From: Vulcanimicrobiales bacterium
GTDB lineage: Bacteria > Vulcanimicrobiota > Vulcanimicrobiia > Vulcanimicrobiales > Vulcanimicrobiaceae
DNA: 64,000 bases
Assembly: GCA_038231455.1 (NCBI GenBank)
Contig: JBBRLI010000001.1
Span: 32,001-96,000 of the forward strand
Direction: 5' to 3'
Below are positions 46,957-50,533 of the stretch, piece after piece. How positions within the stretch are numbered: position 1 is the stretch's first letter; each line of letters starts with the position of its first letter. The position numbers and the translations under genes were made by a program. Under the pieces are notes generated by a model. That model was not told the origin of the DNA. It ran no database searches and was given only the letters and a program-made list of their open reading frames with translations.

Positions 46957-47922
46957 TCACGCCGGGTCGAGCGCCGTCATCGACGCTGCCGCATAGCGGT
47001 CGCCGACGGCCGAACCCATGGGGAACGCCGCCTCGAGTTGGCCCACGTCATCCGGGCTCAGAACGAGATCGAGCGAGGCAAGGTTTTCATCCAAACGCGT
47101 GCGGCGTTTGGTACCGGGGATCGGCACGATATCGCTTCCGCGCGAAAGCACCCACGCGAGGGCTACTTGGGCTTTGGTCGCGCCTTTTGCTTGCGCGATC
47201 CGTTCTAGTGCGGACACCAGTTCCGCGTTCTTCGCGAAGTTCTCGCCCGAGAAGCGCGGTTGGTTGCGGCGCACGTCATCCGCTGCAAGATCGCCGGGTG
47301 AGGTGAACGCGCCGGTCAGGAAACCGCGGCCGAGCGGACTGTAGGCAACAAACGTGATCCCAAGCTCCCGGGTCGTTGCAAGGACACCGTTTTCGGGATC
47401 GCGCGTCCACAGCGAATACTCCGTTTGCAGCGCGGAGATCGGGTGGACGGCGTGCGCCTTACGCATCGTTGCGGGCGATGCTTCGGAGAGGCCGAGATAT
47501 TTGACCTTGCCGGCCTTCACCAACGTCGCCATTGCGCCGACCGTTTCTTCAATCGGCAACACTTTATTGACGCGGTGCATGTAGTACAGATCGATCGTCT
47601 CGATGCCCAGCTTTTTCAGACTTGCATCGCACGCACGTGTGATATAGCTTGCGTCTTGCTTTTCATCGGGCGGCGGGTTACTGAATTTCGTCGCGAGCAC
47701 GACCGCATCGCGCCGGCCCGAAATCGCGCGGCCGACGAGTTCTTCATTGCCGGCGTACGCTTGCGCGGTGTCGAGGAAATTGACCCCACGGTCGAGCGCG
47801 TGATGGATCGTCGCGATCGATTCGGCATCATCGTACCCGGCGTAAAACGCCGACATGCCCATGCACCCAAGGCCAAGCGCCGAGAGTGCAACGCCGGTTG
47901 TTCCAAGTTTCCGATGCTCCAC
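46957..47922 (-). CDS. Aldo/keto reductase
   Basis: [29 protein letters not shown] and PIPGTK motifs; GTG start 2 nt after the upstream stop. Confidence 0.92.
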
Positions 47923-47924
47923 GC

Positions 47925-48971
47925 TTAACTCCGGCTGAGGACGGTGAGCGTGAACGAACCGGGGACCATCGTGCGCGTGGGACGGGTTTGCCCTTCGGCC
48001 GGCGGACCGGTCTTGATCGTCGCCGAGACGACGTAGACATCGTGGTTCGTCGGATTGAGCGCAAGCGTCCGCGCCGTCGGAACCGTTGTGGCCGTTTGCG
48101 CAACCGCAAACGACGTCGGCGAAATCTCGCGCACGACGGTGAGGGTTCCCTCGCCATTCGAGCTCATTGCGAGTTGGGTGCCCGGATCGAACGCCGTTGC
48201 GTCGACGCCTTTGCCGATCGCCGGCGTTGCAAGCACTTTGCCGGTGTCGGTATCGACGATCGCCATCATTTGATTCGAGCAACCCGCGAAAAGCCGGTGG
48301 TGCTTCGTGTCGGCGGCAAGGCCGGTCGGCTCTTCGCACGGCGCGATCGGCCAGGTTTTTGCGACGGTATTCGACTTTGCGTCGATCGCGACGATCTGCG
48401 CCTTATCCTCGAGATTCACGTACATCATGCCGTTGTCGCCGGCCGCAGCGAACTCCGGTACGCCGCCGATCTCGATCGTCGCGAGCACGGCGTTTGATTT
48501 TGCATCGATCGCAATCGCCGAGGTCGCGCCGTGATTGAATGAATACACGCGTTTGGTCACGGGCTCGTACACGATCGCATCGGGATTTTTTCCGGTCGTC
48601 GCAATCGTGGCCGTGGTTTTGAGCGTCGCAAGATCGAAAACGGTCAGGCTGCCGTCACGGCCGTTGCTCGTAAAGCCTTTGCCGAGCTCCGGTGCAAGCG
48701 CGATTCCGTGCACACCCGGTGTCTGCGGAATATCGCCGACGATCGCGCCCGTTGCGGGATCGACAACCATGACATGCGTCGAGCGCGAGATGAACAGATG
48801 CTTGGTGCTCGGGTCGTAGATCAAATAATCCCAACCGCCATCGCCGCCGAGTGCGAACGATTTAGCGACCGTATAGTCACCGGTTGCGGCCGCGACGGGC
48901 GCCGCGGCGAACGAGGGGAGCACCAGGGCCAAGGCTAGGGCGGCCGTCAGGCGCGCGAAGGATGTCTGCAT
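47925..48971 (-). CDS. YncE/YVTN-like beta-propeller secreted protein
   Basis: Signal peptide; [22 protein letters not shown] and ARTLAL motifs. Confidence 0.85.
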
Positions 48972-49014
48972 GGGCGGCTAGGTACGCCGCCGGAGACCGT
49001 TTTCCCTAAGCGTT

Positions 49015-49425
49015 CTAGCCGAAATAGTCTTCCATGAATTTGCCGTAGGGCGTCCCCTCGATGGGAAATCCCGCTTCCGTCACTTTTTTCTTTGCGCCAT
49101 TCAGACCCGTGCCGTCTTTCTCCGAGGTGACGATACCGGCTGCGACCGCAGCCCGCGTCGCACCCGCTCAATGAATGAGGACGGGGCCTGTTGCACGATC
49201 GACCGCTTCACGAATTTTCTCGATGTCGGCCCGGGTCACCACGTCAATCGTCCACGGCACCGACGCATAGGTGACGTCGGTTCCGGCGAGCGCATCTTTG
49301 GTGGAGTTGCCCTCTTCCGCGTCGCCGCGAATGTTCACAACAGTCGAGAACCGACCAGAGGTGAGTTCGTCCTTCGAGGGCTGGCCGCCGACCGTGATCC
49401 CGCCGACCGTAGCTTCGTTCTTCAT
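49015..49425 (-). CDS. Candidate selenoprotein: DUF442/Blh-like (rhodanese/phosphatase-like) sulfurtransferase with Sec86
   Basis: GGQP..VVNIR...EE...GPVLIH-TGA-AGATR. The frame stays open for 50 codons after the TGA to TAG 49017, giving 136 aa. A SECIS-like hairpin follows the TGA. Confidence 0.85.
49132..49167 (-). promoter_or_regulatory. Bacterial SECIS-like hairpin
   Basis: Directly 3' of the UGA: stem-loop GGCUGC-GGUC-GCAGCC with the loop 20 nt from the UGA, plus a lower stem GGUGC/GUAUC. Confidence 0.75.
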
Positions 49426-49474
49426 GGCTCGCGGGTTCGCGGGGACCGTGCGCCGCGCCCCCGTAGTACCGAGC

Positions 49475-50533
49475 ATGCCCGAACGTCACTTTGCCAGCGA
49501 TAACAACGCCGGCGTCCATCCTGCGCTCCTCGCTGCGATTGCCGAGGCGAATCACGGCCACGTCGCCGGATACGGCAGCGATCCGTATACCGAAGCGGCC
49601 GAAGCGACGCTGCGCGGCATGCTCGGCAATGATGCACGCGTGATGTTTGCCTTCAATGGCACCGGTGCGAACGTCGTCGCGCTAGCCGCGGCGCTGCGCC
49701 CGCATCAAGCGGTGATCACGCCGGTAAAATCACATCTCAACGTGGATGAGTGCGGCGCATACGAACGCTTTGCCGGCAGCAATCTCATCGTGGTCGAGGT
49801 GGAGAACGGGAAACTCACGCCGGCGGGCATCGCAGCGCACATGCACGGTATCGGCGATCCGCATCACGTGCAACCCGCGGCAATCTCCATATCGCAATCG
49901 ACAGAAGTCGGGACCGTCTACTCGGTGCAAGAACTCGCCGCGCTCGGTGAGGCCTGCCGCAAGCACGGCCTCTTCTTTCACCTGGACGGCGCGCGTCTTG
50001 CAAATGCCGCTGCCTCCCTCGGCGTCGACCTGCGGACCATGCTCGTCGACACCGGTGTAACGGCGTTCACGTTTGGCGCGACAAAAAACGGTGCGATGTT
50101 TGGCGAAGCGATCGTCTTCTTACACGACCATCCCGCGCTCGAAGTCGCGCCGTATACGCGCAAATCCGGCATGCAGCTCGCATCGAAGATGCGCTTCGTC
50201 GCCGCGCAGTTCAACGCGCTCCTGCACGACGATCTCTGGCTAAAAAATGCTGCGCATGCGAATCGCATGGCACAGCGTTTCGCCGAACACGTGCAGCACA
50301 TCGAGGGTGTGCGGCTGGCCTACCCGGTCGAAGCGAACGGTATCTTTGCGCACGTCCCCTCCGAGTCGATCCCCGAACTTCAGCGCGAACGCAACTTCTA
50401 CGTTTGGGATCACGACGCGTCGGTCGTACGCTGGATGACGGCCTTTGACACGACTGAAGAGGACGTCGATGATTTCGTAAGCGCCATCGCTCGCGTGCTC
50501 GGCCGACCGACGCCGACGCTGATCGAGCACTAA
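49475..50533 (+). CDS. ltaE: Low-specificity L-threonine aldolase (PLP-dependent)
   Basis: FASDN, NGTGAN, HLDGARLAN, GATKNG and SKMRF motifs. Confidence 0.88.
   Translation: MPERHFASDNNAGVHPALLAAIAEANHGHVAGYGSDPYTEAAEATLRGMLGNDARVMFAFNGTGANVVALAAALRPHQAVITPVKSHLNVDECGAYERFAGSNLIVVEVENGKLTPAGIAAHMHGIGDPHHVQPAAISISQSTEVGTVYSVQELAALGEACRKHGLFFHLDGARLANAAASLGVDLRTMLVDTGVTAFTFGATKNGAMFGEAIVFLHDHPALEVAPYTRKSGMQLASKMRFVAAQFNALLHDDLWLKNAAHANRMAQRFAEHVQHIEGVRLAYPVEANGIFAHVPSESIPELQRERNFYVWDHDASVVRWMTAFDTTEEDVDDFVSAIARVLGRPTPTLIEH

Follow-up and report, generated by a model that had tools for sequence, protein, structure and literature searches.

A probable selenoprotein of the DUF442 family in Eremiobacterota, predicted from an in-frame UGA at the catalytic cysteine position

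The gene described in this study lies on the minus strand, at 49015–49425, of a 64,000-nucleotide stretch of DNA from a Vulcanimicrobiales bacterium (hereafter the window; assembly GCA_038231455.1, contig JBBRLI010000001.1, positions 32,001 to 96,000). It is very likely a genuine selenoprotein gene, in which the UGA at codon 86 would be decoded as selenocysteine (Sec) to give a 136-amino acid DUF442 protein, most likely a sulfane-sulfur transferase. It would add a new selenoprotein family, built on a known scaffold and served by a canonical decoding mechanism. Coordinates given without a contig label are window positions.

A DUF442-type gene with an in-frame TGA

The coding sequence opens with an ATG at 49425–49423, at the same M-K-N-E at which the aligned homologues begin, and runs for 136 codons to a TAG at 49017–49015 (G000:C1:81018–81425 in contig coordinates, where G000 is the organism's own genome). 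Its sole in-frame TGA (49168–49170, minus strand), the predicted Sec86 codon, follows the residues GPVLIH and is itself followed by 50 sense codons that end in EDYFG; it occupies the catalytic Cys position of an H-C-x4-R loop, in a column that holds Cys or TGA in homologues. Read as a stop, the TGA leaves an 85-amino acid product (49168–49425), which is the form of the family found in public databases, and a plain list of the open reading frames (ORFs) of the window likewise gives the truncated frame alone (49168–49476). The original prediction had described a frame that stops at the TGA and continues for 50 sense codons to the TAG, a 136-residue protein with Sec86 that gene callers cut short, and a hairpin, GGCUGC-GGUC-GCAGCC, with its loop 20 nt past the UGA; all coordinates of the frame are correct, the translation has 136 residues with U86 and only its stump in the ORF list, and the hairpin lies at 49153–49138 with exactly that spacing.

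A search of protein collections returned 250 matches, and the following figures are taken from the 120 of these that were listed. Among them, 41 cover at least 90% of the query (126–192 amino acids, 54–65% identity) and 79 reach only the first 63–77% of it; 77 of these 79 have a length of 85–93 amino acids, as expected from stopping at the TGA, and span just the first 63% of the query. The short entries among the matches listed are the closer relatives (67–84% identity, together with the window's own 85-amino acid product), and the source names are those of Candidatus Eremiobacterota (Velthaea, Elarobacter, Vulcanimicrobiaceae). Cys stands in the TGA column, within H-C-x-x-x-x-R-A-A, in all 23 full-length homologues aligned, and similarity continues past the TGA to the C-terminus, both in these alignments and in the match to the NCBIfam profile TIGR01244, which extends to residue 122.

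When 401 genomes of the phylum Eremiobacterota were searched with stops read through, the gene was matched in 50. The 53 matches comprise 41 with exactly one TGA, 11 with no stop and one degraded copy. The TGA falls in the Cys column in 41 of 41 TGA loci, and the same column holds TGC or TGT in the 11 stop-free loci. The TGA forms are spread over 40 genomes in 11 genera and two families, with identity down to 36%, and a C-terminal G-T-P-Y...Y-F motif is retained in both TGA and Cys forms. Three unpublished genomes (G359, G275, G230) are included in these counts, and the stem statistics given below are unchanged without them. One of the three, G275, holds a Sec form and a Cys form side by side (L034 and L051).

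The 49 codons past the TGA contain no in-frame stop in any of the 39 TGA loci with enough flanking sequence, compared with 35 and 34 stops in the other two frames. For the 23 closer loci, pairwise differences at the first, second and third codon positions average 0.34, 0.26 and 0.57 for codons 12–31 after the TGA, and 0.17, 0.19 and 0.49 for codons 32–49, compared with 0.19, 0.20 and 0.49 for the 24 codons before it. As no in-frame stop occurs and third positions vary most, as they do upstream, the region past the TGA is under protein-coding selection.

The genome that contains the window (assembly of 3.71 Mb in 106 contigs, 93.7% complete) holds a complete set of genes for Sec synthesis and insertion. 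The gene selA scores 520 bits and is adjoined by selB, with 275 bits, or 305 bits with the C-terminal winged-helix segment, neither of them with internal stops; selD scores 385 bits and has one in-frame TGA, in G-A-G-U-A-S-K; and tRNA-Sec, with anticodon tca, scores 71.6 bits. All four exceed their curated cut-offs, and this SelA, SelB, tRNA-Sec and SelD system would supply the Sec for UGA86. A simple genome scan, confined to open frames with high GC content at third codon positions, looked for a TGA with a GGU-loop stem of 6 bp or more after it and gave nine candidates: the DUF442 gene, the formate dehydrogenase alpha subunit (FdhA), a PrdB-like protein, selD and five others, which showed no recognisable selenoprotein features and were dropped.

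FdhA (G000:C4:66699–70004, L110; TGA at C4:69378–69380) has the motif A-R-I-U-H-S-S-T-V and the loop GGUCU, and scores above cut-off for both NF041513 (1415 bits) and TIGR01553 (1077 bits). The Sec codon of selD (G000:C7:149899–150819, L010) is followed by a GGUUC loop. The PrdB-like protein (G000:C6:31606–33153, L111; TGA at C6:32896–32898) has the motif V-P-V-U-P-M-C-H, with a UxxC arrangement, and a 7-bp stem with a GGUCC loop 17 nt past the TGA; it is likely to be a further selenoprotein of this genome, with a loose family assignment (TIGR04483, 72.8 bits against a cut-off of 300). The predicted selenoproteome would therefore have at least four members, and since the loops of FdhA, the PrdB-like protein and selD are GGUCU, GGUCC and GGUUC, SelB in this organism already meets loops of the form GGU-pyrimidine in genes of accepted selenoproteins.

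The hairpin downstream of the UGA

The putative bacterial selenocysteine insertion sequence (bSECIS) is an upper hairpin at 49138–49153 on the minus strand, with a 6-bp stem formed by 49153–49148 and 49143–49138 around a GGUC apical loop at 49147–49144. In the window's own genome the 48 nt from the UGA fold with −26.4 kcal/mol (z = −2.68), and 2 of 200 shuffled sequences fold as well, so that the folding energy taken alone is modest for GC-rich coding DNA. What argues against chance is the recurrence, in 41 loci from 40 genomes, of three features: the TGA, an open frame beyond it and the hairpin. The minimum-energy fold of the own sequence also includes a possible extended lower stem (49125–49165, minus strand); this is absent from the consensus described below and receives no support from the comparison.

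The 69 nt around the codon were aligned separately for the 41 TGA loci and for the 11 Cys loci. The RNAalifold consensus of the TGA loci is exactly the 6-bp hairpin with its 4-nt loop (folding term −10.57). Standard pairs make up 98.3% of the 240 stem cells of the Sec forms, with double changes in four of the six pairs (45 cells), and the covariation score of 0.544, against 0.263 ± 0.022 for shuffled alignments, was reached by none of 500 shuffles; with the partners slid by 1–3 columns as a control, covariation was at most 0.12. Pair +18/+27 is U-A in 17 loci, C-G in 24 and unpaired in none, while pair +15/+30 is C-G in 17, G-C in 15, A-U in 4, U-A in 1 and unpaired in 4. As both of these pairs join third codon positions, they are free of protein-coding constraint. 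In one genus an Ala has changed to Ile on each arm with the pairs kept (AAUCGC/GCGAUU). All 41 Sec loci have GGUC as the loop, by which two synonymous sites are frozen.

The Cys loci (n = 11) differ in the same columns, with seven different tetramers in place of the loop, 80.3% of cells paired and +15/+30 broken in 7 of 11, and their covariation score was reached by 79 of 500 shuffles. These comparisons indicate that the hairpin is under RNA-level selection in the UGA forms, whereas the Cys forms lack this constraint. Since the sequences are related, counts of events rather than of cells are the fair measure of independence; a quick maximum-likelihood tree that included 40 of the 41 Sec loci shows five switches of +18/+27, at least two of them forced by well-supported branches, and 11 changes are needed for +15/+30.

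The SECIS of E. coli fdhF has a GGUC loop and a stem with a bulged U; the hairpin described here shares the loop tetramer and has no bulged U. In the bSECIS consensus model, the hairpin likewise lies inside the reading frame just past the UGA, with a loop of 3–9 nt, an upper stem of 4–16 bp, a G in the first two loop positions, a spacing of 16–37 nt and a minimum free energy of −7.5 kcal/mol or lower (PMC13188914, Fig. 2 legend); the same spacing is given in PMC10778597. The 4-nt GGUC loop, the 6-bp stem, the 20-nt spacing and the −26.4 kcal/mol over 48 nt fall within every one of these limits, with the differences that the hairpin here has no conserved lower stem and no Rfam match. The checks named with the original prediction were for Cys opposite the UGA and similarity beyond it, for selA, selB, selC and selD, and for TGA and a covarying hairpin in relatives; each returned what a selenoprotein gene would lead one to expect, with all four sel genes in the same genome.

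Family, fold and probable chemistry

Profile searches were run with C in place of U86. The protein matches PF04273 (BLH_phosphatase, formerly DUF442) over residues 25–96 with 28.0 bits, a marginal pass of the cut-off of 26.1, and the stop-read-through translation used in the genome search scores 22.4 bits, which is under it. The match to TIGR01244, named as a family sulfur transferase, covers residues 25–122 with 38.4 bits and does not reach the cut-off of 85.85, so the protein is, by its sequence, a relative of that curated subfamily and not a member. Both matches run across the TGA, and together they occupy 49060–49353 on the minus strand. The model for Blh, a fusion of DUF442 with an ETHE1-type dioxygenase (NF040641), gives 37.4 bits against a cut-off of 625 and is matched in its N-terminal 100 of 423 profile positions only. 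There was no match to rhodanese PF00581 at E up to 0.1, to any phosphatase family in the Pfam search, or to any of the NCBIfam selenoprotein models.

The predicted structure agrees with this assignment. An AlphaFold2 model (pLDDT 96.7, pTM 0.91) places residue 86 between strand 82–85 and helix 90–104, in an active-site loop, H85-U86-A-G-A-T-R91, encoded by 49153–49173 (minus strand). The top Foldseek matches are the DUF442 structures 3gxh and 3gxg from Shewanella putrefaciens (3gxh, E 6e-7, TM 0.77), followed by TpbA, Siw14, plant PFA-DSP1, the DUF442 structure 2f46 (NMA1982) of Neisseria meningitidis (E 2e-5) and Tk-PTP. A family-profile search of PDB sequences found 3gxg/3gxh, 2f46 and two weaker phosphatase-fold chains, with the three DUF442 structures the sole sequence matches under E 0.003. 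Identity to 3gxh/3gxg is 14–18% and to 2f46 22%; these proteins carry Cys, their titles call them putative phosphatases, and U86 aligns with their active-site Cys (U-A-G-A-T-R against HCLANYRA of 3gxg and YCRTGTRC of 2f46). On the model, the protein has a cysteine-phosphatase fold with a six-residue C-x4-R loop. The H-C-x4-R description in the original prediction was borne out, as the same loop is found in the aligned homologues and in the DUF442 structures. Of its label "DUF442/rhodanese-like", the first half stands on the PF04273 match and the second holds for the chemistry only, because the family is DUF442 with a cysteine-phosphatase fold and not the true rhodanese PF00581.

Sulfur-transfer chemistry is proposed because the DUF442 domains that have been assayed are sulfur transferases and U86 lies in their active-site Cys column. 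The DUF442 domain of Blh (Xylella fastidiosa) takes sulfane sulfur from thiosulfate and passes it to cyanide or glutathione (PMC5823870), and that of Cupriavidus pinatubonensis, either fused to SQR or free, handles glutathione persulfide (GSSH), polysulfide and sulfite, with Cys94 as its active-site residue and a C94S form that is inactive (PMC9163753). The protein in this study shares with both the Pfam family and the catalytic Cys column in the C-x4-R loop. It differs from them in its predicted Sec nucleophile, in standing alone at 136 amino acids with no dioxygenase or SQR fusion, in its conserved C-terminal G-T-P-Y...Y-F helix, in the position of its gene, which is not beside sqr, pdo or bigR, and in falling far short of the TIGR01244 and Blh cut-offs. 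A second group for comparison is that of the rhodanese-like selenoproteins, PF00581 forms 1–5, with the motifs UxxS, UxxG or CxU (PMC13188914, Table 1). These also have Sec in the active-site loop of an enzyme of the sulfur-transferase type and were likewise predicted from Sec/Cys pairs and bSECIS elements; they belong to an unrelated family and fold, and the motif here is H-U-x4-R.

In the mechanism proposed, a ribosome reaching UGA86 would meet SelB that carries Sec-tRNA-Sec and is bound to the GGUC hairpin inside the reading frame, so that decoding would be canonical. Sec would take the place of the catalytic Cys of the C-x4-R loop, and its selenolate could attack a donor such as thiosulfate, glutathione persulfide or polysulfide; an enzyme intermediate with an Se-S bond would form, from which the sulfur would be passed to a thiol, sulfite or protein acceptor. 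Given a real selenoprotein, sulfane-sulfur transfer by way of a selenolate is, by analogy with the assayed domains, slightly more probable than not.

Several observations weigh against this interpretation. TIGR01244 is far under its cut-off and Pfam barely over its own, which suggests a divergent DUF442 subfamily, and function transfer from Blh or SQR is therefore weak. A whole-genome search found no further PF04273 gene. No neighbour of the gene is kept beyond genus level, and nothing at the locus links it to an sqr-pdo operon. With regard to the hairpin, kinship inflates the cell counts, the well-supported branches of what is a quick tree force just two or more switches, and about 80% pairing is to be expected from codons alone, as in the Cys forms, because the stem arms encode an Ala-rich helix. 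Rfam gave no match, either in the whole window at gathering thresholds or in 48900–49500 at E up to 10.

A real selenoprotein with other chemistry, whether a phosphatase, an arsenate reductase or a general thiol/selenol redox protein, is rather unlikely, although it is the most probable of the alternatives. The fold fits TpbA, Siw14, plant PFA-DSP1 and Tk-PTP nearly as closely as it does the DUF442 structures, the solved DUF442 entries bear the title "putative phosphatase", and scores against the assayed DUF442 branch are weak (38 bits for TIGR01244, 37 bits for the Blh model). Tyrosine and dual-specificity phosphatases (TpbA, Siw14, Tk-PTP and DUSPs) have the same fold, and their nucleophile likewise sits where the helix after the central strand begins. 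Classical phosphatases, however, have a C-x5-R loop, and the loop here is one residue shorter, C-x4-R, as in 3gxg and 2f46; nor does the protein match a phosphatase family in Pfam. The passages on DUF442 activity in PMC5823870 and PMC9163753, moreover, report sulfur transfer only.

It is improbable that the protein is instead a selenoprotein for selenium trafficking, which would form a perselenide-type intermediate (Se-Se or Se-S-Se) and pass reduced selenium towards SelD. The only hint of this comes from one genus of family f2, in which three related genomes (G151, G303:C8 and G055:C71) have the gene and selA on one contig, with selA about 4.2 kb upstream of the gene; selA is also present in 38 of the 40 Sec-form genomes. 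In G151 (L074, G151:C72:38500–49000), the stretch from selA to the DUF442 gene contains selB and an ABC ATPase gene on the opposite strand; a gene for a PMT_2 membrane glycosyltransferase follows just downstream of the DUF442 gene. The proximity to selA is limited, however, to this one genus and does not amount to an operon, and in the own genome the DUF442 gene does not share a contig with selAB or with selD. Because selA was found in 341 of the 401 genomes and the DUF442 gene in just 50, the latter is not a general part of the Sec pathway.

The remaining explanations do without selenium. That translation really ends at the TGA, be it a normal stop or a nonsense mutation, leaving an 85-amino acid protein or a pseudogene with the downstream frame as a relic, is what the annotation by gene callers and the 77 stumps of 85–93 amino acids among the 120 matches listed would suggest, but it is very improbable. 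The TGA is held in the same column across 41 loci down to 36% identity, the 39 sets of 49 codons beyond it hold no stop and evolve as coding sequence, and an 85-amino acid product would end exactly before the catalytic residue. A genuine relic of this gene looks different, as is seen in a second, degraded copy at a contig end in G197 (L054, G197:C164), which is intact in its N-terminal part up to the TGA and then has a broken frame with two TGA and one TAG. Reading of the TGA as a standard amino acid, through a reassigned code (TGA as Trp or Gly) or near-cognate suppression, would also give an open frame, though nothing speaks for it specifically, and it is equally improbable: the TGA aligns only with Cys and is followed by a covarying SelB-type hairpin, a complete Sec system with tRNA-Sec is present, TGA is an ordinary stop codon in this genome, since it ends 93 of 278 long open frames, and neither selA nor selB is interrupted by a stop. 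An error of sequencing or assembly at a real TGC or TGT codon, from which the TGA differs by a single base, is the least likely of all, as the TGA recurs in the column in 40 independently assembled genomes and dozens of 85-amino acid database entries from several sources end there.

Distribution, history and novelty

Sec use is, on the evidence of selA, common in the phylum. The distribution of the DUF442 gene is narrower, with matches in 45 of 296 genomes of family f1 and 4 of 5 of family f2 (own genome excluded), and none in the other 19 families sampled. In contigs drawn from one genome per species, the named relatives are again Eremiobacterota/Vulcanimicrobiota/WPS-2 with the exception of one record. 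This record (L091), titled "Rhodospirillales bacterium", holds a Cys form of the Eremiobacterota-type gene with 61% identity; its label may be wrong, as all other close relatives are from Eremiobacterota. Distant stand-alone relatives occur in Nostocales cyanobacteria (L095–L109; 20–31% identity), with P-I-L-I-H-C-A-G-G-A-R and a similar C-terminal helix, and all eight that were translated carry Cys. Two cyanobacterial relatives that matched only up to residue 86, and were suspected of being TGA forms, proved to be ordinary Cys forms.

Loss of the Sec system might be expected to mark the Cys forms, an idea that was set aside because the link is partial. Among the Sec-form genomes, G359 shows what is probably a piece of selB at the edge of a contig, and in G251 (88% complete, 500 contigs) selA and selB were not found. 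Among the ten Cys-only genomes, selA is present in five, G286 has a selB above cut-off and G274 a probable selB truncated at a contig edge, while selA and selB were not found in G375, G356 and G203 (93%, 95% and 91% complete). Neither gene was thus found in 3 of 10 Cys-only genomes compared with 1 of 40 Sec-form genomes, so that loss of the system may explain some Cys forms and not most.

On the quick tree, which was rooted with cyanobacteria for drawing, Sec forms make up the greater part of the Eremiobacterota clade, with Cys forms branching inside it in at least two places; the Sec/Cys character needs seven changes by parsimony, at least two of them forced. As all Sec forms share one SECIS in the same register, we infer that the Sec form arose once and that reversions to Cys came later, for which the data are no proof.

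The genomic context gives no clue to function, as no flanking partner is conserved beyond genus level in an all-against-all clustering of the flanking ORFs of 53 loci. An apparent neighbour cluster of 39 loci was merely the antisense frame of the DUF442 gene. Within the window the adjacent genes encode a secreted beta-propeller protein, an aldo/keto reductase and a divergent lyase resembling threonine aldolase, and only the locus of the same genus has them too. The aldo/keto reductase (46957–47880, minus strand) adjoins the gene in the own genus and also at the Cys loci L037, L047 and L053 of other genera, with 48–55% identity in these three, which may be coincidence. The 420-amino acid ORF listed at 49271–50533 (plus strand) is extended at its N-terminus by nothing more than the DUF442 gene read in antisense; as Beta_elim_lyase matches from residue 74 of this ORF, the real threonine-aldolase-like gene would start near 49480.

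The original prediction had remarked that its author did not know this as an established selenoprotein family, and no publication was found, among the main texts searched, that lists it. In the full-text literature searched there was no co-mention of DUF442 with selenoprotein, TIGR01244 with selenocysteine, or Eremiobacterota with selenocysteine. A 2026 review counts 119 bacterial selenoprotein families or subfamilies, and the sulfur-transferase entries among these are all PF00581 rhodanese forms; its main text contains no DUF442, PF04273, TIGR01244, phosphatase, Blh, tyrosine or persulfide (PMC13188914). The same names are absent from the texts of BSepDB (PMC13326102) and deep-Sep (PMC12013277); supplementary tables of the selenoproteome literature, as distinct from these main texts, could list the family under another name. 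The fullest form of the interpretation is that this is the founding member of an undescribed selenoprotein family, with no natural selenoenzyme before it on the cysteine-phosphatase (DUF442) fold, that it arose in Eremiobacterota and reverted to Cys at least twice, and that it employs a selenolate for persulfide or perselenide transfer; this is held with slightly better than even confidence.

As the decoding mechanism is canonical, a known theme would be extended here, with none opened or overturned. The finding would enlarge the catalogue of bacterial selenoproteins by one family and, as it seems, by a further fold class, and it offers a first look at the selenoproteome of the uncultured phylum Eremiobacterota. 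It would also correct a systematic misannotation, as the databases mostly hold 85-amino acid stumps that end just before the catalytic residue, and functional and comparative analyses therefore miss the protein. With Sec and Cys versions of a small enzyme, one genome that holds both, and a simple hairpin, the family may provide a compact system for the role of Sec in sulfur-transfer chemistry.

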